From Hymenobacter sublimis (GTDB lineage Bacteria > Bacteroidota > Bacteroidia > Cytophagales > Hymenobacteraceae): a DNA stretch of 64,000 nucleotides. Made by a program: the position numbers and the translations under genes. The notes beneath the pieces are model-generated. The model worked only from the letters and a program-made list of their open reading frames with translations, ran no database searches and had not been told where the DNA came from. Below are positions 16,950-38,739 of the stretch, piece by piece. Position 1 is the first letter of the stretch, and each line of letters starts with the position of its first letter. The stretch is from contig NZ_CP095848.1 in assembly GCF_023101345.1 (NCBI RefSeq), positions 2,485,297-2,549,296 of the forward strand, given 5' to 3'.

Positions 16950-17060
16950 AGCAGCAGACGCGCATTTCGCGTCTGCTACCAGAACAACCTGCTTAGCGCC
17001 ACATGCGGTACAGACCGTTCAACGAAGAGACGCGAAGTGTCGCGTCTCTGCATATCAGTC
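16950..17060. repeat. Two hairpin repeats of the GACGCG...CGCGTC family, located past the 5' end of rsr
   Basis: GTAGCAGCAGACGCGCATTTCGCGTCTGCTAC and GAGACGCGAAGTGTCGCGTCTCT. Confidence 0.5.
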
Positions 17061-17238
17061 CTGTTCACCTCAGCTCTAACCTTGTGCAGCTGCTGTTGCA
17101 GCTAAAGCGGGGGTAGCGTCGAGGAAATGACGGGGTTAGTAGATGTTTTTAGCGCCCCGGAAAGGCCAGGAGTAGGTTTGAGCACTGATCTACTAAACCA
17201 GGTCAGCGTTTACTTCTTCTTTCTTCCTTTACTACCCT

Positions 17239-17715: not shown

Positions 17716-17829
17716 GCGGCGCAACCAGATAGTGTCTGAAAAATGCTAGACCATCGTGCTTGATCCGGCGGCCGAATAGTCGAAGCAGGACATGTTCATG
17801 AGAGGCGCTGCTTAATTCCTGACCCGTAC

Positions 17830-17930
17830 CCGTGCTGCTGAGCCGCACGAAAGACCTGCTCCAGTTTAAACGGCCCGCTACTGGGGGCCTACTCTGACGG
17901 AAGTAGGTCCTTCGTGCGGCTCAGCGGCAC
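17830..17930. repeat. Inverted repeat with ~28-bp arms (CCGTGCTGCTGAGCCGCACGAAAGACCT / AGGTCCTTCGTGCGGCTCAGCGGCACGG). Terminator or MITE-like.
   Basis: Seen directly in the sequence, downstream of the LTXXQ protein gene. Confidence 0.5.
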
Positions 17931-17981
17931 GGGTTTCCAAGGCCCTTCGTATTCTTACCGATTGTAAGCACAGCCAGCCAC

Positions 17982-19761: not shown

Positions 19762-20068
19762 GGGGTGAAATGGTGACATGGTGAAATGGTGATTGAGCGA
19801 ATAAAAAGGCCCGTCGTCCTTCGTCGCCGCTTGATGCACGGAATGCCCAGGATGACGGGCTTATAGGAAAGGCGTAAGCAGAAAAGCCAGCCCCACGATG
19901 ACGGGCGGATAGTGCCAGAAACGCTACTCCGTTTCTGGTAAGCGCAGAACCGAAAGTCAGCGGAACCAGGAGAAACGTACGTAGCGCTGAGTTACGCGGC
20001 TTTCGTCCGACGCCACAGCTTTTCCGCTCGTCAGCCGTACAAATCGGCACCCCGATTCCTCTCGCCTA

Positions 20069-20971
20069 ATGCCCTGCCTTGCAACCTCCGACCGTTACAG
20101 CATTCAACTGCCCGCCGGCCACCGCTTCCCTATTGCCAAATATGCCCTGATTCGGGAGCAGTTGCTGTGGCAGGGCATTGCCCCACCGGAAGATTTCTAC
20201 GACCCGGGGTTGTGCGCCGAGGAGGATATTTTGCGGGTACATTCCATGGAGTACTGGCAGCGCGTGCGGGACTTGCAGCTCTCGGCGGCGGAGGTGCGGC
20301 GGCTGGGGTTGCCCCAGAGTCCGGAGCTGGTGCGCCGCTCCCTGAGCAGCTCGGCCGGCACGGTGCAGTCGGCGCGCAAGGCCCTGGAGCACGGCATTGG
20401 CCTGAGTCTGGCCGGGGGCACCCACCACGCGTTCCGCGACCGGGGCGAGGGGTTTTGCGTGCTCAACGACATAGCCATTGCCGCCGCCCACCTGCTCCAC
20501 CACGGCTTGGTGCGCCAAGTGCTGGTAGTGGACCTAGATGTGCACCAGGGCGACGGCACGGCCAGCATTTTCCGGGAGGAGCCGCGCGTATTTACCTTTT
20601 CCATGCACGCCGGCGCCAATTACCCCCTGCGCAAGGAGCAGTCGGACCTGGACGTGGCCCTGGACCTGGGCACCGACGACGAAACTTACCTCCGCATGCT
20701 GCACGACACCCTACCTCGCCTACTCGCCCAAGTTCAGCCCGATTTCATCTTCTTTCAAGCCGGCGTTGATGTGCTGGCTACCGACAAGCTCGGCAAGCTG
20801 GCCCTAACCCAAGCCGGTTGCCGCCGCCGCGACGAATACGTTTTGCGCCTCTGCCAGCAGCACCAGCTGCCCGTAGCCGTGAGCATGGGCGGCGGCTACT
20901 CTGAGCAGCTCCGCGACATTGTGGATGCCCACTGTACCACCTTCCGGGTGGCCTACGAAGTGTTTGGGTAG
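20069..20971 (+). CDS. Histone deacetylase-family amidohydrolase (AcuC/HDAC-like)
   Basis: 'GGTHHAFRDRGEGFCVLNDIAIAA' and 'VVDLDVHQGDGT' active-site motifs. Confidence 0.8.
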   Translation: MPCLATSDRYSIQLPAGHRFPIAKYALIREQLLWQGIAPPEDFYDPGLCAEEDILRVHSMEYWQRVRDLQLSAAEVRRLGLPQSPELVRRSLSSSAGTVQSARKALEHGIGLSLAGGTHHAFRDRGEGFCVLNDIAIAAAHLLHHGLVRQVLVVDLDVHQGDGTASIFREEPRVFTFSMHAGANYPLRKEQSDLDVALDLGTDDETYLRMLHDTLPRLLAQVQPDFIFFQAGVDVLATDKLGKLALTQAGCRRRDEYVLRLCQQHQLPVAVSMGGGYSEQLRDIVDAHCTTFRVAYEVFG

Positions 20972-21026
20972 CCTACTCCGGGCGCAGGCTCGCCAGCGTA
21001 AAAATGAACAAAGGAGGCGGCCGGAG

Positions 21027-23441
21027 TTACACCGGAAACGAAACCGTAAAGGTTGAGCCTACCCCTACCTCGCTCTGCACCCTGATAGTGCCGCCCCCAT
21101 TTTCTATCAAGCGCTTCACAATATAGAGGCCTACACCCGTACCCTCCACGTGGGTGTGCAGGCGCTGAAACAGGCCAAACAGCTGGCGTTGTTGCAGTTC
21201 GTTCAGCCCCAAGCCATTGTCCTGCACGGTAAGTAGCACGTATTGCGGTGTGCTTTCGGCGCGCAGCTGCACCCTGGACGAACGGTTCGGGTCGCGGTAC
21301 TTCACGGCGTTGCTGAGCAGGTTGTACACGATACTGCGCAGGTTTTGCGGGGCAAAGGAAATCAGCAAATCCGGGGCTACTTCCACCATGAGCTGGGTAG
21401 CGGCGGCCTGCAGGTCGGGGGCCAGGTCCAGGCGTACATCTTCCACCACCGCCGCGAGTAGCACCGGCTCGGCAGGGGCGGCGTGGGCCAATTGCAGCTT
21501 GGAGAGGTCGGTAAGCTGGGCAATGGTAGTTTGAAAGCGCGCCACCGTGTGGTCGAGCAGGTCCAGCAAATGACTAATCAGCTCGTGCTGCTGAACTTCC
21601 CTGGGCAGATGCTCCCGCAAGGCCAGCATGATGCTTTCGATGTTGGTGATGGGCGCCTTGAGGTCGTGGGAGGCCGTGTACACGAAGGTGTCCAGGTCGA
21701 TGTTGGTGCGCGTGAGCTGGGCGTTGGTTTTGCTGAGCTCGTCGTTGGAAGCCGCCAGTTCCTGGTTTAGGTCCTGCACGCGTTGGCGGGCCAGCACCTG
21801 CTCGGTTACCTCGGTAGCCACCACCGTCACGGCCGTAATTTGGTCGCCCCCATCATGCAAGGGCTGGTACACAAAGTTCCAGTACACCAAGTCGCGGCGG
21901 CCGTGCCGATCAATGTGGGAAGGCAGCTCGTTGGCGACGTAGGGCACGCCGGTAGCCATTACCCCATCGAGCAACTGCTCGAAGCCTTGGCCCGCCGCTT
22001 CGGGCAGCAGCTCGAATAAGGGAGTGCCCAGGGCCTGCTCCGGCGTGCGGCCCCAAATGGCGCACACGGCCGGGTTGGCCAGCTCAATGACGTATTGCGG
22101 CCCCCGGAAAATAGCAATGGCTACTGGCGCCTGCTCAAACAGTTCATGTAACCGGCGTTGCTGAACCTCGTGCTGCTGCCGGGCCAGCACCTGATCCGCT
22201 ACGTTGTAGGCAAAGGTGGAAATACCCACAATCTCCCCGTTTTCGTGGAAGGCTTGGTAGGTGAAGGTGAAGTACATCAGCTTCGGCGGGCCCTCAGGCT
22301 GAGCAATCAGCAGGGGCAGCTCCTCGCCGTAGTACGTTTCGCCGGTTTGATACACGTGGTCGAGCAGGGCTAGCACTCCGCTGTCCACGGTTTCGGGAAT
22401 GGCCTCCGCAACGGTGTTGCCCAGAATCTGGCGTCCCGGAAAAAACTGCAGGTACGCGGCGTTAGCGTATTCGTACCGGTGGTCTGGGCCGCGCTGTATG
22501 CAGATGGCGGCCGGCGTTTGCGCGAATACCTGAAACAAGGTGTTGCGTTCCTGCACCTGGTGCCGGGTAGCTGCCACCAAATCGGCCTGTAGCGCCTCCG
22601 CCTGCTGCCGAGCCTTTACCTGCTGGGTTATGTCGGTAGCCACCACAATGACGCCCGATACGGTGCCCTGCTCAGTTCGCCACGGCAGGTACACAAAATC
22701 AAAATACACCAGCTCCTGCTGGCCGTGGCGCTTCAGGTTGGCCGACAGCTCTTTGGCGACAAAGGGCTTTTCGGTTTCCATGACTCCGGCCAGCAACTCC
22801 TCGTAGCCCGCTCCCTTTGCTTCGGGAATGGCTTCAAACAAGGGCTTATGCAATACTTCCGCGGCCGTTTTTCCCCAAAGCTCCAGGTGGGCCGCGTTTA
22901 CCAGTTTGATGACATGGTCGGGCCCCTCGAAGATGGCAATAGCCACGGGCGCCTGCTCAAATATGTTCGTCAGCTCTGCTCGTTGCCGCTCGGCTTCCGC
23001 CCGGGCGGCCTGCTCGCGGGCCTGGCTCTGGCGGAGGGCCTGTTCAGCGGCGCGCTCGTTGTGCTCCTGGCTAAAGGAAAAACTCACCAGCAGGTGCTGG
23101 CCCAGGCGGCGGCCCACTACCCGGCAGTAGGTGTCATACTGTTCATCCTGGTAGAGCTCCTCATAGTGCCGGGGCTCATCGGAGCCGAATGCCGCGACGT
23201 GGAAGGCAAAGGCCCCGCTGCTCCTCGCCTGCGGAAACTGCTGCAGATACGTAGTGGTAGGCTGCGCCGGCATCCCCAGCAGGCGTTGAGCCGCTGGATT
23301 GACGTAGGAAAAGACGAAGTCCAGTATTTGCCCCGTGGCATCCAGCACTGGCGTGTAACACACGATGCCACTAATTGATAGATCCAGCAATGCGGGCAAC
23401 AACTCGTCGGCAGGAGCCAGACTCAGCGGAAGTGAAAGCAC
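21027..23441 (-). CDS. Multi-PAS sensor histidine kinase
   Basis: Repeated PAS modules with coiled linkers; HisKA 'FVYTASHDLKAPITNIES'; HATPase 'NLLSNAVKY...DNGLGL...GTGVGLYIVKRLIE'. Confidence 0.85.
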   Translation of the reverse strand: MLSLPLSLAPADELLPALLDLSISGIVCYTPVLDATGQILDFVFSYVNPAAQRLLGMPAQPTTTYLQQFPQARSSGAFAFHVAAFGSDEPRHYEELYQDEQYDTYCRVVGRRLGQHLLVSFSFSQEHNERAAEQALRQSQAREQAARAEAERQRAELTNIFEQAPVAIAIFEGPDHVIKLVNAAHLELWGKTAAEVLHKPLFEAIPEAKGAGYEELLAGVMETEKPFVAKELSANLKRHGQQELVYFDFVYLPWRTEQGTVSGVIVVATDITQQVKARQQAEALQADLVAATRHQVQERNTLFQVFAQTPAAICIQRGPDHRYEYANAAYLQFFPGRQILGNTVAEAIPETVDSGVLALLDHVYQTGETYYGEELPLLIAQPEGPPKLMYFTFTYQAFHENGEIVGISTFAYNVADQVLARQQHEVQQRRLHELFEQAPVAIAIFRGPQYVIELANPAVCAIWGRTPEQALGTPLFELLPEAAGQGFEQLLDGVMATGVPYVANELPSHIDRHGRRDLVYWNFVYQPLHDGGDQITAVTVVATEVTEQVLARQRVQDLNQELAASNDELSKTNAQLTRTNIDLDTFVYTASHDLKAPITNIESIMLALREHLPREVQQHELISHLLDLLDHTVARFQTTIAQLTDLSKLQLAHAAPAEPVLLAAVVEDVRLDLAPDLQAAATQLMVEVAPDLLISFAPQNLRSIVYNLLSNAVKYRDPNRSSRVQLRAESTPQYVLLTVQDNGLGLNELQQRQLFGLFQRLHTHVEGTGVGLYIVKRLIENGGGTIRVQSEVGVGSTFTVSFPV

Positions 23442-26762: not shown

Positions 26763-27545
26763 CTAGCCTAGCCGGGCCAGCAGCTCCTCCACTTGCCGCT
26801 CCAGGCGCGTTACCCGCTCCTCTACCAAGGCCGGTGGGCGCAAGTAGGTACTGAACACACCTTGCACTTCCCATACTTCCAGGGCATCTGTAAAAGGCAC
26901 GTCCTGCACCGGATAGTCGGGGTTATCGGCCCGCAGGCGTAGCACGTTGTCGGAACGGTGCTCCAGCAGCCGGCGCACCAACAGTTGATTTTGCAGCACG
27001 AAGGCGTACAGGCGGCCCGCCCGCAGGCGCAGCGTGGCCTTGTCTACCCGGCAGGTTAGCAGCACATCCTGGTGCCGAACGGTGGGCTGCATATCCGCGC
27101 CCTGCATCTCAAAGGCCCGGGTGGCGCCCCCTAGCTCGGGCGGAAACGTTAGGGTAGCCAGGCCCTGCACAAAAGCGGCGTCGTGGTGCCGCACAATGTA
27201 CTCCATGAGCCGGGCCGTGGGCACGTAGGGAGTAGCTCCCGAAGTTCCCTCCGAAGCGGCGTCGGCCGCTGGGGTATCTGGTTGCTGGTACCGCTCAAAA
27301 CCATAGAGGTCGTTTACGGTCAGTTCTTTCGTTAGTAGCAGGTCAACGGAAAGGCCAAAATGATGAGCAATCTGAATTAGCGTCTCCATTTTGGGCTCCG
27401 AGCGGCCCTCTTCGTAAGCCCCTACGCTGGGACGGGCCAGCCCGAATAATTCGGCAAAAGCCGCCTGACTCAGCTTTTTAACCGTTCTTATCTTGCGGAT
27501 GTTCTTTCCGACGTGTGACATCGTAGCAAAAATATTTTCGCTCAA
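26763..27545 (-). CDS. XRE-family HTH transcriptional regulator with C-terminal sensor/peptidase-like domain; the true start may be the internal ATG at 27521
   Basis: HTH 'IRKIRTVKKLSQAAFAELFGLARPSVGAYEEGRSEP'. A perfect palindrome GCTCAAACTTTGAGC lies just upstream. Confidence 0.65.
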   Translation of the reverse strand: MSENIFATMSHVGKNIRKIRTVKKLSQAAFAELFGLARPSVGAYEEGRSEPKMETLIQIAHHFGLSVDLLLTKELTVNDLYGFERYQQPDTPAADAASEGTSGATPYVPTARLMEYIVRHHDAAFVQGLATLTFPPELGGATRAFEMQGADMQPTVRHQDVLLTCRVDKATLRLRAGRLYAFVLQNQLLVRRLLEHRSDNVLRLRADNPDYPVQDVPFTDALEVWEVQGVFSTYLRPPALVEERVTRLERQVEELLARLG

Positions 27546-27717
27546 ACTTTGAGCATATACTGAAACTTCAGTACCATTGCATCGTAAAACTACCAGAATA
27601 CAGTGAACTGCTTTGCTGAATTCAGCTATTTTTTTGAGCCAAACTTAGTCGCTGGCTCTACCTGGCCAAGGCAGGTAGCACTCGGTTCGCTTTTTCTTCT
27701 ACCCTTATATCCACTGT

Positions 27718-28116
27718 ATGGTCAACCGCTACTTTACAACTATCAAGGGCTTTTTGCTGGAATTGGGCTTTGATATCCGCCACGAAGAGGCGGCCGCCAA
27801 CGTTCTGGTTGTCAATAAGCTCGACCAGGGTATCCGGCATCTGGTGCTTAGCTGCGGAGAACCGCTTTTGATTCTGGAGCAGCACCTGCTGGATTTGCCG
27901 GGCCCTTCCTGCGAGGTGTACCAGCAGTTGCTCCAGAAAAACCGCGACATCATCCACGGCGCCTTCGTGCTGGATGAGTCGGGCCGCAAGGTCATCTTCC
28001 GCGACACCCTGCAGCTAGAGCACCTCGACCGGCCCGAGCTGGAAGCGGTATTCAACTCCCTGGCCCTGCTGCTCAGCGAATTCAGCGACGAGCTGATTGC
28101 CTTTTCCAAGGCTTGA
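27718..28116 (+). CDS. Hypothetical protein
   Basis: ORF only; no recognisable motif. Confidence 0.3.
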   Translation: MVNRYFTTIKGFLLELGFDIRHEEAAANVLVVNKLDQGIRHLVLSCGEPLLILEQHLLDLPGPSCEVYQQLLQKNRDIIHGAFVLDESGRKVIFRDTLQLEHLDRPELEAVFNSLALLLSEFSDELIAFSKA

Positions 28117-28244: not shown

Positions 28245-28946
28245 ATGAACCTTTTCACGCGTCTCTTTAAAATCGGCCAGGCCGAAGCGCATTCGGCCGT
28301 TAATCAGCTCGAAGACCCAATTAAGCTCACGGAGCAAGCCTTGCGCGACCTGCGCCAGGACCTAGACAAAGCCCTGCACGCGCTGGCCGAGGTGAAAGCA
28401 CTGGCCATCCGCAGCCGTAATGAGGCCGAAACCGGGCGGGCGCAGGCGCTCGAATACGAGGGCAAAGCAGTGCAGCTACTCCAGAAGTCGGGCCGCCAGG
28501 AGTTGGCTCCGGCCGAAGCTGACCGCCTCGCCACGGAAGCCTTAACCAAAAAGGCCCAGCACGAGGCCCACGCCATCCGCGCCGCCCAGGAGCAGGAGAA
28601 GTTCGAGGCCTCGGCCCGGCAGCTCGACGAGAATGTGCAGCAGCTTAAGCAAACCATTTCGCAGTGGGACAATGAGTTGCGCACCCTCAAAGCCCGCGTT
28701 ACGGTTAGCGCCGCCACCAAAACCATCAACCAACAGCTAGCCCAGCTCGACTCATCGGGCACGGTGGCCCTGCTGGAACGTATGAAGGAAAAGGTAGCTA
28801 CCGAGGAAGCCCTGGCCGAATCGTACGGGCAGATTGCCCAGGAAAGCAAATCCATTGACCAGGAAATTGACAGGGCGCTGGGCAAAGATGGCAGCAGCCA
28901 GGCCGCTACGGAGTTGCAAGCTCTCAAGGCGAAGCTGGGGCTGTAG
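28245..28946 (+). CDS. pspA: PspA/IM30 (Vipp1) family protein
   Basis: N-terminal 'MNLFTRLFKIGQAEAHSAVNQLEDPIKLTEQALRDLRQ' is the canonical PspA start. The rest is long coiled-coil. Confidence 0.85.
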   Translation: MNLFTRLFKIGQAEAHSAVNQLEDPIKLTEQALRDLRQDLDKALHALAEVKALAIRSRNEAETGRAQALEYEGKAVQLLQKSGRQELAPAEADRLATEALTKKAQHEAHAIRAAQEQEKFEASARQLDENVQQLKQTISQWDNELRTLKARVTVSAATKTINQQLAQLDSSGTVALLERMKEKVATEEALAESYGQIAQESKSIDQEIDRALGKDGSSQAATELQALKAKLGL

Positions 28947-28949
28947 GCA

Positions 28950-29225
28950 ATGCTGTCAATAGCTCAGATATATCATGAACCCAGGCTAGATTCAATGCAC
29001 ATGAATACCCGTGAAAAAATTCTCCTGTATGCAGGCAGCGCCACGATAGTTCTCATTGCCCTAGCCCGCATTCTGCACTATCTCGAGGCAAAAGAAATGG
29101 GTTCTATGATGGTACTTGGCTGGGTGCTCATTCTTAACGCCTACCGGAACTATGCCAAGCGCCTGCAGCGCCGCAACGCCGAGCTGGAACTCCTGGTAAC
29201 TCCGCCATCAGCCCCGGCAGCGTAA
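28950..29225 (+). CDS. Small membrane protein (possible PspA-associated)
   Basis: Two hydrophobic helices; begins 4 bp after pspA. Confidence 0.4.
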   Translation: MLSIAQIYHEPRLDSMHMNTREKILLYAGSATIVLIALARILHYLEAKEMGSMMVLGWVLILNAYRNYAKRLQRRNAELELLVTPPSAPAA

Positions 29226-29544
29226 CGTTTCCCTGGCCCTCTTCCCTACCTCAACCCATGAAACTACTCCATTGGATTGGCGTGGTTTTTTGACCACGGC
29301 CAGTCTGCTGAACCTGTTTGAGCAGCTACCACCTTCGTCGGTGGTCAGAATACCGGTTGCTGGCATTGGCCTGTACGGCGCGAGGGTAAGCCGCTACCTG
29401 TGCCGGCCGGAGCACGAAAAACGCGCGCTGCGGTAGCTGCCGGTGGGGGTAGTAACCTGCTAATATGGTGGAGCTTTGCTGGCTTTTTCGGTTCTTTCCG
29501 ACCTAGATGCGCGCTAATGCGGCGCGGCTTGCTTTTTTGGTACG

Positions 29545-30198
29545 ATGACTGACCTGTTTCACGCGGCGCTTTTGCCAGCCAATCTGCTGCCCACGGCCCT
29601 ACTGGTATTTGTGCTGCTCTACTGGCTGACCGTAATTACCGGCCTGCTCGATTTCAAGTCCCTGGATTTGGACGTGCATCATCACCCGGAGCTGCACCAC
29701 ACCCACTTTCACGCCCCTGAGGGCATGGGCGTAAGTTGGTTAAATCACGCTTTGGCTTTTTTCAACCTGGGTCGGGTGCCGCTGATGGTGTTTGTGGCTT
29801 TTGTGGCCCTACCGCTGTGGGTAGGCAGCATTCTGCTTAACTATTACCTGGGTAACAGCTCTTGGCAGCTGGGGTTGCTGCTACTGCTGCCGTTGCTGCT
29901 GGTGGCGCTGCTGGTTGCCAAGGTCCTGACCACGCCGTTCGTGCATGTGTTTGCCGCCTTCGAGAAAGACCACCACGATGGTACCCGGCCCCTGGGCAAG
30001 GTTTGCACCATTCTGCTACCCGCCAGCCAGCAGCACCTGGGCCAGGCCAGCGTGGCAGTGCCCAACGGCGCCCCCCTGATGCTCAACGTGCGAGCCGCCG
30101 ACGCCACCACGGAGCTGCGCAAGGGCGACTCGGCCCTGGTGATTGATTATGATGAGCAGCGCCGCTGCTACGTAATTGAACCCTACGAGGTGTCCTGA
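29545..30198 (+). CDS. YqiJ/NfeD-like membrane protein (OB-fold C-terminal domain); probable flotillin partner
   Basis: Multi-pass hydrophobic N-terminus and a C-terminal beta-rich 'ASVAVPNGAPLMLNVRAADATTELRKGDSALVIDYDEQRRCYVIEP' resembling NfeD OB-folds. A flotillin gene lies downstream. Confidence 0.5.
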   Translation: MTDLFHAALLPANLLPTALLVFVLLYWLTVITGLLDFKSLDLDVHHHPELHHTHFHAPEGMGVSWLNHALAFFNLGRVPLMVFVAFVALPLWVGSILLNYYLGNSSWQLGLLLLLPLLLVALLVAKVLTTPFVHVFAAFEKDHHDGTRPLGKVCTILLPASQQHLGQASVAVPNGAPLMLNVRAADATTELRKGDSALVIDYDEQRRCYVIEPYEVS

Positions 30199-30220
30199 GT
30201 GCTAAATTCTGCTACCTTTA

Positions 30221-30643
30221 GTGCACGCTTTACTCGCCATGAATCAGGTGTTTAAGTCCAATATAAGCTGGTGGCTTTTCGGGCCGATTCTGGGCGGCCT
30301 GGGCTTCTTTTTGCTGCTGGCCGTAGCCCAGCAACGCTGGGTAGCAGGCCTGGTGGTGCTCGTACCGGTCTGCTTTATTATCTATCTACTCTTGTCCACT
30401 GCCTACACCATTACGCCGCAGAAACTCATTATTACATCCGGGCCGCTGCGCCTGCGCCTGGCAGGACAGGACATTACCAGCATCTATCCTACCCATACCC
30501 CCATTAGCTCCCCGGCCCTTTCGCTCGACGACCGATTGGCAATACGCTACGGCAAGTTTGATTCCGTGCTGGTATCACCCGCCGCCAAGGCTGGTTTTCT
30601 GGCTGGGTTGTTACAGCTTAATCCTGCTATCCGTCATGATTGA
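30221..30643 (+). CDS. Hypothetical membrane protein
   Basis: Two or three transmembrane segments. Confidence 0.4.
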   Translation: MHALLAMNQVFKSNISWWLFGPILGGLGFFLLLAVAQQRWVAGLVVLVPVCFIIYLLLSTAYTITPQKLIITSGPLRLRLAGQDITSIYPTHTPISSPALSLDDRLAIRYGKFDSVLVSPAAKAGFLAGLLQLNPAIRHD

Positions 30644-30916
30644 CTTGCTGGGTACTCTAAAAACGTTCTGGCACTGGCTGGGCAGTCTGCTGCTGGATGG
30701 CCTACTGGCCGATTTCTTCGCTTGGCTGGCCGAGTGGCTGTTTCCGTGAGCTACCCGCTGGCGCTGAGCCTACCCCAACCTTTTCTTTCCTAACCTTCTG
30801 CCGGCGGCTCCTGCCCTGCGCGGACAGGAACCGGCATCCCTAGTCTCTACCAACCCGCGCCCTAGCTAGGGCGCCCTACCTCTGAATCTATTTCTTTACC
30901 CCTACCCCCTACTTCC

Positions 30917-33085
30917 ATGTTGGAACAACTCTCCCTGGCGGTGATACTCATCGTTGCCGTCCTCTTATTGGGCTTTCTAGCCATCATTGCCCGCATGTAC
31001 CAGAAGGCGGTGCAGGGCGAAGCCCTCGTCCGGACCGGCATGGGCGAAACCAAGGTTTCCTTTAGCGGCATCTTCATCGTGCCCATCCTGCACAAGATGG
31101 AGGTGATGGACATCAAGCTCAAAACCATTGTTATTGCCCGGGCTGGCTCCGAAGGGCTGGTCTGCAAAGACAATCTGCGGGCCGATGTGAAGGTGAACTT
31201 CTTCGTGCGCGTCAACAAAACCCACGATGACGTGCTGAACGTGGCTCAGAGCATCGGGGCCCACCGCGCCTCCGACCCCGCGGCCCTGGAAAACCTCTTC
31301 GACGCCAAGTTTTCAGAAGCGTTAAAGACGGTAGGCAAGCACTTCGATTTCATCGAGTTGTATAATTCCCGCGAGCAGTTTAAGCAGGAAATCCTGCGCA
31401 TTATCGGCACCGACCTGAACGGCTACGTGCTCGACGACTGCGCCATCGACTACCTGGAGCAAACCCCGCTGACCGCGCTCAACCAAGACAATATTCTGGA
31501 CGCCGAGGGCATCAAGAAAATCATTGCCCTGACCTCGGAGCAGAAGATTCAGGCCAACTCCATCCAGCGGGAGCAGCAGAAAACCATCAAGAAGCAGGAC
31601 GTTGAGGCCCAGGAAACCATCCTGCAGCTGGAAAAGCAGCTGATTGAAAACCAGGAAAAGCAGAAGCGCGAGGTAGCCAATATCAAGGCTCGTGAAGCCG
31701 CGGAGGCCGAAAAAGTACAGCAGGAAGAGCGTCTGAAATCAGAGCGGGCCCGCATTGCCACCGAAGAAGAAGTGCGCGTGGCTGAGCAGAACCGCGACCG
31801 GCAGGTGCTGGTGGCCGAGCGCAACAAGCAGCGCACCGACGCCGTGGAAACCGAGCGCGTCGCGCAGGCCCAAGCCCTGGAGGCCAACGAGCGGGAGCGG
31901 ATTGTGGCCCTGGCCCAGATTGAAAAGGAAAAGGCTCTGGAAGAAGAGAAAAAGAACATCCAAACCATCATTCGGGAGCGAATCACGGTAGAAAAAGCCA
32001 CGGTTCAGGAAGAAGAAAAGATAAAGGACACCCGCGCCCAGGCCCAGGCCGACCGCGAAAAGCTGGTGGCCCTGACCGCCGCCAAGCAGCAGGCCGAAGC
32101 CGCCACGGTGGCTCTGGTAGGCAATGCCGACATGGAAAAACAAGCCGCCGAGTTCCGCGCCAAGCAGGCCCTAATTGACGCCGAAGCCGAGAAAGCCGCC
32201 GCTGAGTTCAAGGGTCAAGCCATTCGTACCCTGGCCGAAGCCGAAGCCAGCAAAGCCACCGCCGTGGGCCTAGCCGAAGCCCAGGTGATGCAAGCCAAAG
32301 CCACCGCCCGCCAGAAAGAAGGCGAAACCGAGGCCACGGTGCTGCAGCTTACCGCCGCCGCCGAAGCCCAGGCCATTCAAGCCAAAGCCGGTGCCCAGGC
32401 CGAAGCCGACGAAAAACTAGGCCTGGTAGCCGCCAAAATCAACCGTGAAAAAGGCCTCGCCGACGCCGACATCATTCAGGCCAAAGCCGACGCCGACCAG
32501 AAGAAGGGCCTGGCCGAAGCCGCCGTATCGGAGCAGAAGTTTGCGGTGGAAGCCAAGGGCATCGAGGCCAAGGCCGACGCCATGAAAAAGCTCGATGGCG
32601 TGGGCAAAGACCACGAGGAGTTCAAACTGCGCCTCGACAAGGAAAAGTCGGTGGAGCTGGCCCAGATTAGCATTCAGAAGGACATTGCCGCCTCCCAGGC
32701 CGATGTTATCGGCGAGGCCCTCAAGGCCGCCAAAATCGACATTGTGGGCGGGGAAACGATGTTCTTCGACCAGATTATTGGCTCTATCACGAAGGGTAAG
32801 ATGGTGGACCGCGCCGTGCACAACTCCGAAGTGCTGGGCACCGTGAAAGACGCCTTCTTCTCCCTGGACGGGGGCGGCGACTTCAAAACCAACCTGCGTC
32901 GCTTTGTGGATCAGTTCGGCCTGAGCAGTGAAGACATGAAGAACCTCAGCGTCTCGGCCCTACTGCTAAAGATGATGAACCAAGCCGGCGACGACGCCAC
33001 GCGTGCCACCATCACCCAGCTGGCCAGCACCGCGCAGGTGATGGGCATCGGCGACAAGCCGGCCAAGATGCTAGAGCTGAAGTAA
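30917..33085 (+). CDS. Flotillin-like SPFH/band-7 protein with very long Ala/Glu/Lys coiled-coil repeats (YqiK/FloT-like)
   Basis: N-terminal TM and SPFH core 'VRTGMGETKVSFSGIFIVPILHKMEVMDIKLKTIVI...DNLRADVKVNFFVRV', then ~350 aa of 'EAEKAAAEFKGQA'-type repeats. Confidence 0.85.
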   Translation: MLEQLSLAVILIVAVLLLGFLAIIARMYQKAVQGEALVRTGMGETKVSFSGIFIVPILHKMEVMDIKLKTIVIARAGSEGLVCKDNLRADVKVNFFVRVNKTHDDVLNVAQSIGAHRASDPAALENLFDAKFSEALKTVGKHFDFIELYNSREQFKQEILRIIGTDLNGYVLDDCAIDYLEQTPLTALNQDNILDAEGIKKIIALTSEQKIQANSIQREQQKTIKKQDVEAQETILQLEKQLIENQEKQKREVANIKAREAAEAEKVQQEERLKSERARIATEEEVRVAEQNRDRQVLVAERNKQRTDAVETERVAQAQALEANERERIVALAQIEKEKALEEEKKNIQTIIRERITVEKATVQEEEKIKDTRAQAQADREKLVALTAAKQQAEAATVALVGNADMEKQAAEFRAKQALIDAEAEKAAAEFKGQAIRTLAEAEASKATAVGLAEAQVMQAKATARQKEGETEATVLQLTAAAEAQAIQAKAGAQAEADEKLGLVAAKINREKGLADADIIQAKADADQKKGLAEAAVSEQKFAVEAKGIEAKADAMKKLDGVGKDHEEFKLRLDKEKSVELAQISIQKDIAASQADVIGEALKAAKIDIVGGETMFFDQIIGSITKGKMVDRAVHNSEVLGTVKDAFFSLDGGGDFKTNLRRFVDQFGLSSEDMKNLSVSALLLKMMNQAGDDATRATITQLASTAQVMGIGDKPAKMLELK

Positions 33086-33099
33086 AGATTGACTACCCC

Positions 33100-33270
33100 A
33101 GCTAGAAACTAAAACTAAAAACTAGCTCCCCTCCTCAGATGAGGAGGGGTTGGGGGTGGTTGACCCGCACGTCTGAACAACCTACTAGTTTTAGTTTTCT
33201 AAATCTAGTGTTTCAACCACCCCTACCCACTCCTTGGATAAGGAGGGGAACTAGCCTCTAGACTTCTATA
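33100..33270. repeat. Nested palindromic MITE-like element: TIR-like CTAGAAACTAAAACTAAAAACTAG / CTAGTTTTAGTTTTCTAAATCTAG, plus hairpins CCCCTCCTCAGATGAGGAGGGG and CTCCTTGGATAAGGAGGGG
   Basis: Seen directly in the sequence. A related hairpin CCCCTCCTCAACTGAGGAGGGG plus AACTAG lies at 33668-33700, after the DUF559 gene. Confidence 0.55.
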
Positions 33271-33273
33271 GCT

Positions 33274-33696
33274 ATGCCTGATACAAATCACATTCATAAT
33301 CTAGGCTATCAAAAAGCTATCCGCCGCACACTTCGCAGCAACCTCACACCTGCCGAAGCTCTGCTCTGGAAAGCACTTCAGCGCAGCCAACTAGCCGGCC
33401 GCAAGTTTCGTCGCCAGCATGGCATCGGTCCGTACATCGTGGACTTCTACTGCTCAAGCAAAAAGCTGGTGGTAGAGCTGGATGGCGCCGGACATTTCAC
33501 GGCTAATGGTGAGGCGCAGGATGCCGAACGGGACGCTTATCTGGGCAGCTTAGGCCTGAAAGTGCTGCGCTTTGAGAACGAGCTATGCTTGCAACATATC
33601 GAGAGTGTATTAGCGACTATTGAGGCTGCTTTTCAGACCATCGTTCTATCATCGTCAACCACCCCTAGCCCCTCCTCAACTGAGGAGGGGAACTAG
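33274..33696 (+). CDS. DUF559 (Vsr-like endonuclease fold) domain protein
   Basis: 'LTPAEALLWKALQR...KFRRQHGIGPYIVDFYC...LVVELDGAGH...DAERDAYLGSLGLKVLRF' is typical of DUF559. Confidence 0.75.
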   Translation: MPDTNHIHNLGYQKAIRRTLRSNLTPAEALLWKALQRSQLAGRKFRRQHGIGPYIVDFYCSSKKLVVELDGAGHFTANGEAQDAERDAYLGSLGLKVLRFENELCLQHIESVLATIEAAFQTIVLSSSTTPSPSSTEEGN

Positions 33697-33735
33697 TTTC
33701 TAGTCTTAGCCCTAGCTGATGTTCGGGCTGCTTTT

Positions 33736-36700
33736 ATGGAACAAACTACCCAACTCGAAACCGGCACCTACGAAATTCTGCGCAACCGCCTGCTCAAGAG
33801 CAGCACCGACCTGCGCCAGCGCCTGGACCTGCTCAATACCGAGCGCAAGCAGGTGTTTGGGGCCGTGGATACGCGCCTGCTAGGCACCGGCCGCATTACC
33901 ACTGAAAATAACTGCGTGCCCTGGGACATGGTGCCGGTGGGGCAGCGGTTCATCTTCGGGTACAACGTGGTGCTGGGGCTGAAAGCGGAGCCGGACTTGG
34001 CCGATGTATTTGGGGTGTACGAATATGCCGAGCACGATTTCCGGCCGCTGGGCCTGGAGCTGCTGCAGAACCCGCAGTTTCTGGAGGAGTTCCGCAACCT
34101 GTACCGCTACTACAAGAACACCCAGTTCGTGAAGTTCGCGGTGATTGGGGCGCACTTGTTTATGGTGTTTCGGGTGGGCAAGAGTGCTTCCGACGTAAAG
34201 ACGTTTAAGTGGCTAATGCAGGGCGAGACGCTTACCTACCTCGACAACCGCTCCGACCACGAGTACACCTTTCCGCCCCAGCACGAGTTCCAATGGAAGC
34301 GCGCCACCCGTGACATGCAGCGCGGCGGCAAGCACCCCCACATCAGTATCGAGGACAAGGTGTTCGTGGAAACCGTGGGCGGCGACCTGACCATTAAGGT
34401 GGAGGACAACACCAGCACCGGGCAGGGCATTTTGAGCGAGCCGGTCGACGATAAGGATCAGACCCTGGACGACTCGGAAATCTACTATGCGGTAGTGGGC
34501 AATCTGATTCTGCTCAAGATCCGGCCCTACCAGGAGCAGCAGTACCGCTACTTCATCTTCAACCACAAGCTCAAAACTGCTCAGCGCCTCGATGCCCTGG
34601 CCGATGCCTGCGTGCTGCTGCCCGACGGGCAGGGCCTGATCTTTCCGCACGGCTTCTACCTGCAAACCGGCGACAACAAGCTCTTCGATAACGGCCTGCG
34701 CGAGATGCTGTTCGAGAAGCGCGTCGTGTCGCCCAACGGGGAGGATTCCCTGTATGTGTTCTTCAACAAGGACCACGGCACCTACCTGCTGCTGAGCTAC
34801 AACCGCATTGCCCAGCGCGTCGATAACCCCATCGTGTGCCACGGCTATGCTCTGTTCGAGAATGGGGAGCTGTGCTACTTCCGGGCCGACGATGAGCCCA
34901 AGAAGCACCACGCCGTGCAGATCTGGCAGACGCCCTACACCGCCCCGGATTTCCAGCTGCCCGTCACCTCCGATTCTTACCTCTACAAGCTGGGTAACAA
35001 GGAGATTGTGCGGGCCATGAGCGAGGTGCAGGAAATCCTGACGCTGACCAGTAAGGACGACTCCTACGCTGGCCTCTACCTCGACCTGATTCGCCAAACG
35101 ACCAGCCTCACCGACGCCTACCACTGGCTGCGCGAGCCCGCCGCCCAGGCCCTGGCCAAGCCCTTGGGTGAAATCCGCCAGACGGCCACGGCCGCCGTGG
35201 AGGAGTTTGAGAAGGTGCAGAGCATCCGCAAAAACGCCGCCCAGCAAACCCAAACTATTTTCCAGAAAGCCGACGAGCTAATAGGCCGCATCCGCCGCTC
35301 TGCGCCCGATACCGTCACGGAGTTTGTGCAGCTGCTGGGCGAGTTGCGCGGGGTGCGGGGCGAGGTAATTTCCCTGAAGGAGCTGCGCTACGTGGAGCTG
35401 CCGGCCGTGGAAAAGCATGCCACCGACTTGGAAGCCCTGAGCAAAGAAGTGGCCCTGCAAACTGTGGACTTTCTGCTCAAGCCCGATGCCCTGGCCCCTT
35501 ACTCCCAGCGCGTGCAGGCCATAGCTGAAGGCGTAGAGCAGGTGCAGAAAACCGTAGAGGCCGATCAGCGCGAGCAGGAAACGGCCGCCGTGGCCCAGGA
35601 GCTGGAGCTGCTGATTGAGGTAGTGAGCAACCTGCCCATCCCCGACCCGACCCAGACCACGGCCATCATCGACAACATCTCGACCGTGTACGCCCGCTTC
35701 AACCAGATTCGGGCGGCGCTGAAGCGGCGGCGGCAAGCCCTGGCCGGCACCGAGGCCCAGGCCGAGTTTACCGCCCAGCTCAAACTGCTGGAGCAGGCCC
35801 TGACCAACTACCTCGACCTGGCCGATACGCCCGCCAAGTGCGACGAGTACCTGACCAAGCTCATGGTGCAGCTCGAAGAGTTGGAAGGCAAGTTTCCCGA
35901 CTTCGACCAGTTCATTGAGCAGCTCACCACCCGGCGCGAGCAGGTAGTAGAAGCTTTCGAGTCGAAGAAAACGGCCCTGGTAGCGGCCCGCAACCAGCGC
36001 GCCACGGCTTTGCTGCAAAGCGCCGAGCGGCTGCTAAAGGCCGTGCAAAGCCGCCTCACCCGCCTGGAATCGGTGGCGGATATCAACGGGTACTTTGCTG
36101 CCGACGTGATGGTGGAAAAGGTGCGCCAAACGGCCCAGGAGCTCATCAACCTCGGCGACTCGGTGAAGTCGGACGACGTACAGAGCCGGCTGAAAACCCT
36201 GCGCGAGGATGCCGTGCGCCAGCTCCGCGACCGGGCCGACCTCTACGCCGACGGCGGCCAGACCCTTAAGTTCGGCCCCCATGCCTTTACCGTCAACACC
36301 CAGCCTCTGGAGCTGACCGTGGTGCTGCGCGACGGCGACCTGCACTACCACCTCACCGGCACCAACTTCTTCCAGAAGATAACCGACCCGACCCTGCTGG
36401 CCTCCAAGCCCGTCTGGGAACAAACCGTGCTGTCGGAAAACCAGGACGTGTACCGGGCCGAGTTCCTGGCCTGGCGCATTCTGCAGGCGGCCCAGCACCC
36501 CACGCCCGCCGATGCGGAAGCGGGCCACCCCGCTGTGCTGTCCGTACCCGAGCTAGGCCACCTCAGCGCCGCCGAGCTACTGGCCTACGTGCAGCAGTTT
36601 ATGGCCGCGCGCTACCAGGAAGGCTACCTTAAAGGCGTGCACGACCACGACGCCGCCCTGCTGCTCACGGCCCTGGTGCGCCTCACGCGCACGGCAGACT

Positions 36701-38739
36701 TACTCCGCTACCCGGCCGACACCCGCGCCGCCGCGGCCCTCTACTGGCTGCGCTTCGCCAACCCCGACCAGCGGGCCCACTGGGAGCGGCAGCTCCAGGG
36801 CATCGGGGTGCTGCTCCAGGTCTTCCCCGATTCCCAGGAGTTCGACGAGCTCAAAACCGAGCTGCAAATGGCCGTAAACCGTTTCGCGGAGCAAACCGGC
36901 CTGTTCACCCCCGCCCAGGTGGCGGATGCCGGCGACTACCTCTTCCACGAGCTGACCCACACCGGCACTTTCATCATTGCCGCCGAAGCCGCCGAGCTCT
37001 ACCAGCAGTTACAGAAGCAGCTGCAGGAGCGCCAGGCCACGGAGCTGTTTCAGCAGTCGGTGATGGGCCTCCAGGACCAGCCGGTAGCGCAGTTTAACTT
37101 GGTGCGACAGTGGGTGCAGGCGGCGCAGTTCCGTGGACCCCACCCCCCAACCCCCTCCCCGGTGGGGAGGGGGAGCCAGACGGCTATGCAAGCAAAGCAA
37201 GTGCCCTCACTCCAGAACGCACCCCTCCCCACCGGGGAGGGGCTGGGGGTGGGGTCCGCTGGGCTAGCCCTCGAAACTGCCGTGCTCCTGCTCACTGGCA
37301 CCTACGACCCGGCCCGCGTGGTGCACACCCCTACCCTCGAAATACTCGAAAACCTCCAGGGCAGCCACCCACGCATCCCCGAAAACCGGACCTACCAGCT
37401 CAACTTCCCCGATTTCCGCCGCCGACTGCTGCACTACGACCGCGCCACGGTAGTCCAGTACGAGGCGTTTCAGGAGGTGAAAAAGCAGCTGCTGGCCCGG
37501 GCCGCCGAGGACATGCGCCTGGAAGATTTCCGGCCCCGCGTGCTCACCTCCTTCGTGCGCAACCGTCTCATCGACCAGGTGTATCTGCCCATCATCGGGG
37601 CCAACTTGGCTAAGCAGATCGGGACGGCGGGGGAAGGTAAGCGCACCGACCTGATGGGCTTGCTCCTGCTCATCTCGCCGCCCGGCTACGGCAAAACCAC
37701 GCTCATGGAGTACGTGGCCAACCGGCTGGGCCTCATCTTCATGAAGATCAACGGGCCCGCAATCGGACACGCCGTGACGAGTGTAGACCCCGCCCAGGCC
37801 CCCAACGCCGGGGCGCGGCAGGAGCTGGAGAAGCTGAACCTGGCCTTCGAGATGGGCGACAACGTGATGATTTACGTGGACGACATCCAGCACTGCAACC
37901 CCGAGTTTCTGCAGAAGTTTATCTCCCTCTGCGACGCCCAGCGCAAGATTGAGGGCGTGTACCAGGGCCGCCCCCGCACCTACGACTTCCGCGGCCGCAA
38001 GGTGGCAGTGGTGATGGCCGGCAACCCCTACACCGAAAGCGGCGACGTGTTCCAGCTGCCCGACATGCTAGCCAACCGCGCCGACATCTATAACCTCGGC
38101 GACATTCTCACGGCGGGCTCTGAAGACGCCTTCCGCCTCTCCTACCTCGAAAACGCCCTCACCAGCAACGCGGCCCTGGCCCGCCTCGCCACCCAAAGCC
38201 CCCAGGACGTGCCCGCCCTCATCCGCCTGGCCGAAACCGGGCAGCAGGACGGCCTCAGCTTCGAGGGCAACCAGACGCCCGAGGAGTTGAACGAATATGT
38301 GGCGGTGCTGCAAAAGCTGCTGCGCCTGCGCGACGTGGTGGCCCGCGTGAATGTGGCCTACATTGCCAGCGCCGCCCAGGCCGACGCCTACCGCACCGAG
38401 CCGCCGTTCAAGCTCCAGGGCTCCTACCGCAACATGAACAAGCTGGCCGAGAAAGTGCGCCCCGTCATGAACGACCAGGAAATTGAGCAGCTCCTGGCCG
38501 CCCACTACGAAAGCGAAGCCCAAACCCTGACCAGCGCCACCGAAGCCAACCTGCTCAAACTGCGCGAGCTGCTCGGCTGGCTCACCCCCGAGCAAGCCGC
38601 CCGCTGGCAGCAAATCAAGCAAACCTACCTCGACAACCTGCGCAACTCCGGCGCCGGCCAACTCCTACAGATGCTCGATAAGCTGGAAAACATTGCCGGT
38701 GGCCTGAGCGGAATTCGGGAGGCGTTGAAACGGGAGTAA
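33736..38739 (+). CDS. Very large (1,667 aa) uncharacterised protein with a C-terminal P-loop (AAA+-like) ATPase domain
   Basis: Walker A 'LLLISPPGYGKTTLMEY' and Walker B 'VMIYVDDIQH' near residues 1300-1400; no other recognisable motif. It carries an in-frame palindromic insertion at 37131-37262. Confidence 0.7.
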   Translation: MEQTTQLETGTYEILRNRLLKSSTDLRQRLDLLNTERKQVFGAVDTRLLGTGRITTENNCVPWDMVPVGQRFIFGYNVVLGLKAEPDLADVFGVYEYAEHDFRPLGLELLQNPQFLEEFRNLYRYYKNTQFVKFAVIGAHLFMVFRVGKSASDVKTFKWLMQGETLTYLDNRSDHEYTFPPQHEFQWKRATRDMQRGGKHPHISIEDKVFVETVGGDLTIKVEDNTSTGQGILSEPVDDKDQTLDDSEIYYAVVGNLILLKIRPYQEQQYRYFIFNHKLKTAQRLDALADACVLLPDGQGLIFPHGFYLQTGDNKLFDNGLREMLFEKRVVSPNGEDSLYVFFNKDHGTYLLLSYNRIAQRVDNPIVCHGYALFENGELCYFRADDEPKKHHAVQIWQTPYTAPDFQLPVTSDSYLYKLGNKEIVRAMSEVQEILTLTSKDDSYAGLYLDLIRQTTSLTDAYHWLREPAAQALAKPLGEIRQTATAAVEEFEKVQSIRKNAAQQTQTIFQKADELIGRIRRSAPDTVTEFVQLLGELRGVRGEVISLKELRYVELPAVEKHATDLEALSKEVALQTVDFLLKPDALAPYSQRVQAIAEGVEQVQKTVEADQREQETAAVAQELELLIEVVSNLPIPDPTQTTAIIDNISTVYARFNQIRAALKRRRQALAGTEAQAEFTAQLKLLEQALTNYLDLADTPAKCDEYLTKLMVQLEELEGKFPDFDQFIEQLTTRREQVVEAFESKKTALVAARNQRATALLQSAERLLKAVQSRLTRLESVADINGYFAADVMVEKVRQTAQELINLGDSVKSDDVQSRLKTLREDAVRQLRDRADLYADGGQTLKFGPHAFTVNTQPLELTVVLRDGDLHYHLTGTNFFQKITDPTLLASKPVWEQTVLSENQDVYRAEFLAWRILQAAQHPTPADAEAGHPAVLSVPELGHLSAAELLAYVQQFMAARYQEGYLKGVHDHDAALLLTALVRLTRTADLLRYPADTRAAAALYWLRFANPDQRAHWERQLQGIGVLLQVFPDSQEFDELKTELQMAVNRFAEQTGLFTPAQVADAGDYLFHELTHTGTFIIAAEAAELYQQLQKQLQERQATELFQQSVMGLQDQPVAQFNLVRQWVQAAQFRGPHPPTPSPVGRGSQTAMQAKQVPSLQNAPLPTGEGLGVGSAGLALETAVLLLTGTYDPARVVHTPTLEILENLQGSHPRIPENRTYQLNFPDFRRRLLHYDRATVVQYEAFQEVKKQLLARAAEDMRLEDFRPRVLTSFVRNRLIDQVYLPIIGANLAKQIGTAGEGKRTDLMGLLLLISPPGYGKTTLMEYVANRLGLIFMKINGPAIGHAVTSVDPAQAPNAGARQELEKLNLAFEMGDNVMIYVDDIQHCNPEFLQKFISLCDAQRKIEGVYQGRPRTYDFRGRKVAVVMAGNPYTESGDVFQLPDMLANRADIYNLGDILTAGSEDAFRLSYLENALTSNAALARLATQSPQDVPALIRLAETGQQDGLSFEGNQTPEELNEYVAVLQKLLRLRDVVARVNVAYIASAAQADAYRTEPPFKLQGSYRNMNKLAEKVRPVMNDQEIEQLLAAHYESEAQTLTSATEANLLKLRELLGWLTPEQAARWQQIKQTYLDNLRNSGAGQLLQMLDKLENIAGGLSGIREALKRE
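37131..37262. mobile_element. MITE-like palindromic element inserted in-frame within the giant ORF
   Basis: TIR-like GGACCCCACCCCCCAACC ... GCTGGGGGTGGGGTCC flanks two hairpins, CCCCTCCCCGGTGGGGAGGGGG and CCCCTCCCCACCGGGGAGGGG. It encodes 'PHPPTPSPVGRGS...PLPTGEGLGVGS'. Confidence 0.5.

Follow-up and report, generated by a model that had tools for sequence, protein, structure and literature searches.

Does the giant ATPase encoded beside a flotillin gene in Hymenobacter sublimis work together with its neighbour and, if so, on what does it spend ATP? The locus lies in a stretch of 64,000 nucleotides (nt) of contig NZ_CP095848.1 (positions 2,485,297 to 2,549,296 of the forward strand), called here the window, and all positions below are counted from its first letter. 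The initial annotation, made from the letters alone, described a membrane-stress cluster of PspA, NfeD-like and flotillin genes, followed by a DUF559 gene and an "orphan" ATPase, and suspected that flotillin and ATPase might form a membrane-associated machine. The matter bears on how bacterial SPFH/flotillin assemblies and PspA polymers are built, remodelled and dismantled, which is the question that the giant ATPase addresses. We found that the whole region of about 26.76-38.74 kb of the window is a single operon, of a type already known from comparative genomics, whose conserved core consists of three genes in this order:

29545-30198, + strand: YqiJ/YuaF-type (NfeD2-like) protein of 217 amino acids (aa), with three transmembrane (TM)-like segments and a C-terminal soluble domain
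30917-33085, + strand: SPFH/flotillin-like scaffold of 722 aa, in which an N-terminal TM segment is followed by an SPFH/Band_7 domain, a coiled coil of about 385 aa rich in A/E/K/Q, and a conserved domain at the C-terminus
33736-38739, + strand: giant cytosolic ATPase of 1,667 aa, a DUF3686 + DUF7902 + AAA family protein by Pfam

The open reading frames (ORFs) of the initial annotation are all present on the + strand with the coordinates it gave, as are the GYGKTT and VDDIQH motifs that it read in the giant protein. Its genes therefore stand, but its start at 28245 does not, since the CesT_Tir_1 gene (27718-28116) and the regulator gene (26763-27545) were missed.

Conservation of the flotillin-ATPase pair

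The window proteins were scanned with Pfam and NCBIfam, and TM-like segments and composition were computed from the sequence. One genome per GTDB species was also scanned, which confirmed at least 553 relatives, and 80 loci were taken from them; in the resulting survey of 85 loci (numbered with the prefix L), six-frame ORFs were searched with the window proteins and their plasmid orthologs. Counts of flotillin-like and YqiJ-like genes refer to loci with at least 3 kb of upstream DNA, and those of PspA, CesT and regulator genes to loci with at least 7 kb.

A flotillin-like gene lies directly upstream of the giant gene and on the same strand in 66 of 69 loci (96%), with a median stop-to-stop gap of 125 nt, and a YqiJ-like gene precedes the flotillin-like gene in 59 of these 66. 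The loci with the pairing span about 11 phyla or groups (Bacteroidota, Planctomycetota, Verrucomicrobiota, Kiritimatiellota, Desulfobacterota, Bacillota, Omnitrophota, Chitinispirillaceae, Actinomycetota, Deinococcota and Pseudomonadota). In H. sublimis itself 650 bp with an unrelated DUF559 cassette separate both genes, which might suggest that they became neighbours by coincidence. However, the frequency, phyletic spread and close spacing of the pair refute this explanation, to which we assign practically no weight, and the link suspected in the initial annotation is real.

Beyond the core, the 65 loci with sufficient upstream DNA include 21 with PspA, 20 with a CesT or YjfI gene, which in all 20 forms a dyad with PspA, and 19 with the regulator, every time alongside CesT and PspA. 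The loci that carry this extension are those of Bacteroidota together with plasmid pQBR103. In pQBR103 a YjfI-family partner replaces CesT_Tir_1, YjfI and PspA are found about 5 kb upstream of the core, and no match to the regulator was found at the locus. Because PspA and CesT/YjfI occur in only about one third of the loci, the flotillin, and not PspA, is the constant partner of the ATPase, and PspA is a clade-specific addition to the conserved core.

This distribution also bears on a different reading, in which the giant AAA+ protein acts chiefly on polymers of PspA, a member of the ESCRT-III family, as a bacterial analogue of Vps4, while the flotillin-like protein serves only as a membrane platform. 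The operon of H. sublimis does encode PspA with a dedicated chaperone, and PspA is present in those 21 of the 65 loci. Furthermore, in a review from 2025 (PMC7619361) a Vps4-like ATPase "appears absent in bacteria" and the roles of the Band-7 partners of PspA are listed as "undetermined", and Ravi et al. liken associations of PspA with AAA+ proteins to Snf7-Vps4 (PMC11237479). However, an ATPase devoted to PspA fits poorly with the absence of a nearby PspA gene from two thirds of the loci, and we consider this reading unlikely.

The pair is also found on plasmids. A tblastn search of plasmid records returned full-length giant homologs with 38-47% identity in Streptomyces, Nonomuraea, Deinococcus, Proteus, Vibrio, Halomonas, Photobacterium and Pseudomonas. 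In four plasmid records the gene upstream of the giant one encodes an SPFH/flotillin protein or an unnamed protein of 650-680 aa, preceded in each case by a gene for a protein of 144-217 aa. Among the surveyed loci, the module sits on large plasmids or megaplasmids of several phyla, in Hymenobacter sp. DG25B (L004), pQBR103 (L001), Deinococcus (L002 and L005) and a Streptomyces linear plasmid (L003). In pQBR103 it adjoins an operon of YjfI, PspA and polyamine (glutathionylspermidine synthase) genes, with a gene for phospholipase D some 8 kb downstream of it.

The idea of the pairing is not new, since a computational prediction of it is in print. In 2024, Ravi, Anantharaman et al. (mSystems) described in silico an operon of CesT/Tir-PspA, YqiJ/YuaF, Band-7/flotillin and beta-propeller-coiled-coil-AAA+ genes, proposed that it acts in sub-membrane dynamics, and reported that abbreviated versions of it are widespread among bacteria and archaea (PMC11237479). 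Their supplementary table gives as a Bacteroidota example Dokdonia donghaensis (ANH61663.1), with a divergent cHTH+protease regulator (PMC11237479). The H. sublimis locus belongs to the same phylum and equals this operon in gene order and domain content, with all five features present: a CesT-PspA dyad, a three-TM protein of YqiJ/YuaF type, a flotillin-like protein, a propeller-coiled-coil-AAA+ protein and the divergent cHTH+protease regulator. It differs from the published operon in a 91-aa TM ORF, a bPH_4 gene, the DUF559 cassette and an in-frame palindromic element within the linker of the ATPase. The H. sublimis locus is thus an ordinary member of the family with few lineage-specific insertions. 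The initial annotation knew of no characterised pairing of this kind; the in silico description shows that the pairing was already recognised, and in our literature search no experimental study of the operon was found. What is new here is that the linkage is quantified, that the motor is placed near MoxR, midasin and dynein, and that the name "DNA repair ATPase" is found to be unsupported.

Other known systems share parts of this arrangement. As the initial annotation held, a set of PspA, NfeD-like and flotillin-like genes is known as a module for membrane integrity (PMC8581546, PMC2636767). In the NfeD2-flotillin (SPFH2) operons yqiJ-yqiK of E. coli and yuaF-yuaG (floT) of B. subtilis (PMC2636767), as here, the gene for a small membrane protein with an NfeD-like C-terminus lies directly upstream of that for a protein with TM, SPFH and EA-rich coiled-coil regions. 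Unlike the operon of H. sublimis, these were described without a third gene for a giant ATPase, and Ravi et al. deem them "abbreviated". Also, the pspA-ydjGHI operon of B. subtilis encodes PspA together with an SPFH protein and small membrane proteins, and its SPFH protein YdjI is required for the membrane localisation of PspA (PMC8581546); in contrast to the operon described here, it has neither an AAA+ ATPase nor a CesT/Tir chaperone, and its membrane partners are YdjG and YdjH.

Architecture of the giant ATPase and its partners

The giant protein had been called an orphan whose only recognisable feature is a Walker A/B ATPase, and neither statement holds. Three Pfam matches lie above their curated cut-offs, namely PF12458 DUF3686 at aa 25-463 (E 1.5e-195), PF25472 DUF7902 at aa 584-667 (E 2.4e-27) and AAA/AAA_5 at aa 1310-1437 (E 5.5e-6). 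At least 4,939 homologs score at E <= 1e-5 among the 8,000 candidates scored, and an exhaustive search with aa 1-1100 returned 1,385 clusters (50% identity) at E <= 0.001. Full-length homologs of 1,600-2,000 aa show identity down to 28%, and dozens of named Hymenobacter species yielded full-length orthologs. The ORF is 100% identical to an H. sublimis protein that carries the NCBI name "DNA repair ATPase". No TM segment is predicted in it, and its partners are membrane proteins. AlphaFold2 (AF2) models were built from alignments of the proteins found in the protein searches, with a predicted local distance difference test (pLDDT) score of 85.6 for the model of aa 1-1150. Together with the conservation profile, the translation and structure searches, they give the following layout:

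aa 11-41, + strand: long N-terminal helix (AF2 model)
33874-34929 (aa 47-398), + strand: predicted beta-propeller inside DUF3686, all-beta in the AF2 model, pLDDT mostly >90
34978-36243 (aa 415-836), + strand: long helical rod of spectrin-repeat-like bundles, including DUF7902 (AF2 model, structure search)
36262-37134, + strand: small beta domain (aa 843-881), then helical domain (aa 907-1133) (AF2 model, conservation profile)
37513-38175 (aa ~1260-1480), + strand: AAA+ core with Walker A, Walker B and the AGNPYTESGDVFQLPDMLANRAD motif
37684-37701, + strand: GYGKTT of the Walker A motif PPGYGKTT (translation)
37876-37893, + strand: Walker B motif VDDIQH (translation)
aa 1428-1450, + strand: motif AGNPYTESGDVFQLPDMLANRAD (translation)
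38176-38736 (aa 1481-1667), + strand: C-terminal helical domains, a lid and an extra helical bundle (helices 288-472 of the AF2 C-terminal model)

For the propeller region the best Foldseek matches are WD40, kelch and CyRPA propellers (E down to 9e-7), and PDB sequence and profile searches returned no sequence relative of this region with a solved structure. Searched against the PDB by single sequence and by profile, the giant protein as a whole gave matches only to p97 and RuvB, limited to the P-loop stretch. Within the helical domain, the stretch KGVHDHDAA (aa 966-974, 36631-36657) is near-invariant across phyla and might, for example, bind a metal. The structure search matched no enzymatic fold in the propeller, rod or helical domain of the N-terminal region, and neither Pfam nor the structure search found a nuclease or other toxic effector domain in the protein. 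Judging from the models, the propeller and helical rods are predicted to be an interaction-type architecture. We also considered kinship with protocoatomers, as propeller plus solenoid proteins (clathrin, Vps18, nucleoporin, IFT) appear among the Foldseek matches; we do not claim it, as the query-normalised template-modelling scores (TM-scores) of <=0.14 are too low.

For the AAA+ module the AF2 model is of high confidence (pLDDT 91.6). Among solved structures, the MoxR ATPases CbbQ and NorQ come closest to it, at only 14-18% sequence identity, followed by midasin and dynein. The C-terminal model has a beta-hairpin (residues 210-223) directly before the sensor-1 strand (229-235), and AGNPYTESGDVFQLPDMLANRAD resembles the MoxR signature. 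Across phyla the module reaches 80-92% column identity, an unusual degree of conservation, and the C-terminal helical domains carry the conserved motifs YRTEPPFKLQGSYRNMN. According to the models, the motor is most probably a MoxR-clade AAA+ ATPase. The giant protein differs from CbbQ and NorQ in some 1,250 extra N-terminal residues and in a Walker B motif with DD and not DE. Ravi et al. label the protein a "novel AAA+ ATPase", whereas here its predicted fold is placed beside MoxR, midasin and dynein and its rod is spectrin-like. The initial annotation also considered a role in defence, for which the PADLOC scan described below gave no evidence.

Some orthologs are larger than the Hymenobacter protein. 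Those of Planctomycetota, Verrucomicrobiota and Desulfobacterota (L019-L021, L024, L029, L031, L032 and L047 among them) are 100-350 aa longer, at 1,750-2,020 aa, with the extra sequence past the C-terminus of the Hymenobacter giant protein. In a Rhodopirellula metagenome-assembled genome (L082), a second ORF of about 2,020 aa lies on the + strand downstream of the giant gene (~16217-22280), and phmmer did not pick it up as a giant homolog.

The flotillin-like partner is harder to recognise. At full length the 722-aa protein has no Pfam or NCBIfam match, and a Band_7/SPFH match (E 5.8e-13) appears only when residues 1-228 are scanned alone. Residues 216-600 consist to 57% of A, E, K and Q and hold 30 EA/AE dipeptides. 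"Flotillin-like" is a fair label because of the Band_7 match, the N-terminal TM segment and this A/E/K/Q-rich stretch. Orthologs are annotated as "flotillin family protein" or "SPFH domain-containing protein". The SPFH2 features of an N-terminal anchor followed by SPFH/Band_7 and of an NfeD2 partner gene (in the 59 of 66 loci) are present; the Flot domain PF15975 was found in 0 of the 27 family proteins scanned (the window protein and 26 orthologs). Only 3 of these 27 give a Band_7 match at full length. It is possible that the HMMER composition filter, triggered by the A/E/K-rich region, hides the Pfam matches of these proteins, and such Pfam-invisible flotillin-like proteins are a source of "hypothetical protein" annotations. 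Against the PDB the matches were marginal only, with flotillin-2 at E 0.93 and QmcA at E 4.3e-4, the latter with the family profile.

The YqiJ-like protein of the window likewise has no Pfam match of its own. It is 68% identical to its Hymenobacter DG25B ortholog, which carries the NCBI name "DUF1449 family protein", and aligns with proteins in the same position in five other taxa, including Pseudomonas and Deinococcus; one same-position Deinococcus protein has a weak NfeD match (E 0.0024).

Regulation, accessory genes and inserted elements

Around the core, the operon contains the following elements:

26763-27545, - strand: divergent regulator with HTH_3 (E 1.3e-11) and Peptidase_S24-like (E 2.3e-9) domains, annotated "LexA family"
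27540-27554, no strand: perfect 15-bp palindrome GCTCAAACTTTGAGC, putative operator, overlapping the annotated TTG start of the regulator
27718-28116, + strand: CesT/Tir-like chaperone of 132 aa, first gene of the operon (PF22550 CesT_Tir_1, E 3.2e-52)
28245-28946, + strand: PspA/IM30 membrane-stress protein (ESCRT-III superfamily) of 233 aa (PF04012, E 5.8e-39, above the curated cut-off)
28950-29225, + strand: 91-aa ORF with one TM-like segment (TM prediction)
30221-30643, + strand: protein with two TM segments and a bacterial PH domain (bPH_4, PF06713, E 1.3e-16)
33109-33709, no strand: DUF559 cassette, a DUF559 gene between 56-nt inverted repeats
33274-33696, + strand: DUF559 gene, Vsr-like endonuclease fold (E 5.1e-33)
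33109-33164 and 33654-33709, no strand: inverted repeats of the cassette, 56 nt, 89% complementary
33213-33265, no strand: third copy of the repeat, beside the DUF559 gene
37135-37257 (aa 1134-1174, GPHPPTPSPVGRGS...PLPTGEGLGVGS), + strand: palindromic element resembling a miniature inverted-repeat transposable element (MITE), in frame in the variable linker of the giant gene (repeat search)

The palindrome GCTCAAACTTTGAGC has only this one match in the window, and identical or near-identical palindromes occupy the equivalent place in H. telluris, H. metallilatus and Hymenobacter sp. 15J16-1T3B. In loci of Flavobacteriia the palindromes TATTAGCTAATA or TATTTGCAAATA are found instead. We regard all three as putative operators, candidates proposed from their sequence and position.

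In the S24-like domain of the regulator, the position that seems to align with the catalytic Ser119 of LexA is Asp in the window protein and Glu in most operon-linked homologs, with Ser in one homolog only (L069). The position presumably equivalent to Lys156 of LexA is Arg in nearly all operon-linked homologs. This suggests that the regulator is a non-cleaving pseudo-peptidase. As the Ser-Lys dyad is apparently lost, RecA-stimulated self-cleavage is doubtful, and SOS/LexA control of the operon, which we had considered, is weakened.

These residues matter for the function that databases assign, by which the giant protein would be a DNA-repair ATPase under an SOS-type LexA regulator. The Pfam description of DUF3686, the NCBI product name and the "LexA family" annotation of the adjacent regulator all point that way. 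However, we found no supporting paper in the literature search and no DNA-binding, nuclease or helicase domain in the protein, and its weak RuvB_N match (E 2.7e-4) spans only the P-loop. Its structural neighbours are instead MoxR, midasin and dynein, its constant gene neighbours all encode membrane proteins, and nearly all homologs of the regulator have Asp/Glu and Arg where the catalytic Ser and Lys of LexA would stand. We consider a role in DNA repair very improbable, and the database name is without support.

The CesT/Tir-like chaperone gene sits immediately upstream of pspA, so the CesT/Tir-PspA dyad is present in the window; the association of such a chaperone with PspA has been reported already (PMC11237479). 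The 91-aa ORF has no Pfam match, and the locus survey found only weak relatives, in L008 and L009 (E 3e-7 and 5e-4). It is lineage-specific and may not be a genuine gene. A counterpart of the bPH_4 gene in the equivalent slot was seen solely in L008, which indicates a lineage-specific insertion. Together with the DUF559 gene, these are lineage-specific passengers outside the conserved core.

In the DUF559 cassette each repeat holds the hairpin CCCCTCCTCAnnTGAGGAGGGG, and the third copy makes an "empty" palindromic unit of about 150 bp adjoining the DUF559 gene. H. endophyticus and H. telluris share this layout; the cassette is missing from DG25B, H. swuensis and all non-Hymenobacter loci but L016, and in H. 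swuensis a DUF3592 gene fills the slot in its place. From its repeats the unit looks like a small MITE-type cassette. The element in the linker of the giant gene, which precedes the AAA+ module, is related to the cassette repeats; its 33-nt arms (37140-37172 and 37222-37254) are 88% complementary and 49 nt apart, and the conservation profile falls to about zero over it. It is missing from the DG25B ortholog, and two other species have an element of different sequence at the identical site.

The cargo of the slot between the flotillin-like and giant genes differs by taxon and includes DMP19-like + DUF3997, DUF3592, AbiEii toxin and DUF559 genes. Two loci without a flotillin gene have ParE and Uma2 genes immediately before the giant gene. 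The slot is a possible hotspot for insertions. Varied small cargo genes near the giant gene were located as follows:

L011: 8621-9704
L014: 7754-9738
L036: 8664-9380
L086: 8582-8956
L032: 9380-9763
L045: 5909-6505

Small genes of conflict type near the giant one (DUF559, DMP19-like, AbiEii, ParE, Uma2), mostly in the slot after the flotillin gene, invite the reading that YqiJ, flotillin and giant ATPase form an anti-phage (abortive infection) or other conflict system, in which the propeller senses the invader and the ATPase triggers membrane disruption. Such a system would also suit the copies borne by plasmids or megaplasmids (Hymenobacter DG25B, pQBR103, Deinococcus, Streptomyces) and the phospholipase D gene of pQBR103; Ravi et al. 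note one in some proteobacterial operons (PMC11237479). However, a scan of seven proteins against PADLOC-DB v2 gave no significant match: the hits were marginal (coiled-coil matches for PspA and a DUF559-DpdF fragment with E 9.3e-6), and the best for the giant protein was mad8 (E 0.0036), with no passing stretch. Furthermore, the scans found no nuclease or toxic effector domain in the giant protein, its AAA+ module is conserved across phyla, unlike fast-evolving immune sensors, and no relative was found in IMG/VR viral contigs. The orthologs in dozens of Hymenobacter species suggest a largely vertical, core-like gene. A defence function is therefore rather improbable in our view.

Proposed role of the giant ATPase at the membrane

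Our analysis favours, with moderate confidence, an ATP-driven action of the giant ATPase on the flotillin/NfeD assembly or on its clients under envelope stress, by which these would be assembled, remodelled or dismantled. ATP-driven remodelling is the best reading because of the invariant coupling to flotillin-like and YqiJ-like genes, the remodelling-type ATPase fold and the large interaction scaffold. Pairwise distances of flotillin-like and giant proteins also correlate (r 0.875, a value reached in 0 of 999 permutations), which is weak evidence in its favour. In analogy to SPFH assemblies whose structures are solved, a large oligomeric cage or microdomain would be formed at the inner membrane, on its cytoplasmic side, by the flotillin-like protein together with the NfeD-like one. 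The giant protein would oligomerise via its AAA+ ring, dock through propeller and rod onto this assembly or its clients, and use ATP to assemble, remodel or dismantle them while the envelope is under stress. In lineages that encode them, PspA and the chaperone would be drawn to these sites and seal the damaged membrane. A more specific proposal, which we put forward only tentatively, is that this propeller/rod/MoxR-type AAA+ protein might be a dedicated ATP-driven assembly or disassembly factor of bacterial flotillin cages, and of PspA/ESCRT-III patches where these are co-encoded.

Functional precedents for an SPFH assembly that works with an AAA+ machine and with NfeD partners may be seen in HflK/C-FtsH, flotillin-1/2 and QmcA-YbbJ. 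SPFH proteins are described as forming large membrane-attached cages, the HflK/C assembly as working with the AAA+ protease FtsH, and NfeD partners are reported to bind SPFH assemblies (QmcA-YbbJ). The flotillin-like family profile matches QmcA, weakly, as given above.

Several points weigh against this proposal. The Walker B motif of the giant ATPase has DD instead of DE, so that ATP turnover may be slow and the giant protein may be a switch. MoxR proteins are about 250-500 aa long and typically act with VWA-domain partners; by Pfam and NCBIfam no VWA domain was found in the genes of the operon, the rest of the genome not having been searched. The correlation of flotillin-like and giant protein distances was computed without an unlinked-gene control, and shared phylogeny alone could give this r. 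Three loci (L027, L032 and L045) have the giant gene and no flotillin gene within 7-10 kb; the initial annotation had named orthologs without an adjacent flotillin as the observation that would speak against the link, and with only these three among 69 loci the link stands. Finally, the literature search returned no experimental study of the operon and no paper that mentions DUF3686, or "DNA repair ATPase" together with flotillin. The same search gave no experimental study for flotillin with MoxR or for pQBR103 with PspA, and a 2026 survey of P. aeruginosa SPFH proteins leaves the giant ATPase unmentioned.

Two errors of annotation will spread through genome databases from this family, the name "DNA repair ATPase" and the flotillin-like partner that at full length is largely invisible to Pfam. 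The giant ATPase is a concrete and testable candidate for the missing Vps4-like activity. If it is indeed a dedicated factor of flotillin cages, it would be the energy-consuming part that reviews call missing from bacterial SPFH/ESCRT-III membrane repair. It would then be functionally like Vps4, or like FtsH within HflK/C, but with a motor of dynein/midasin type and a propeller-rod N-terminus.

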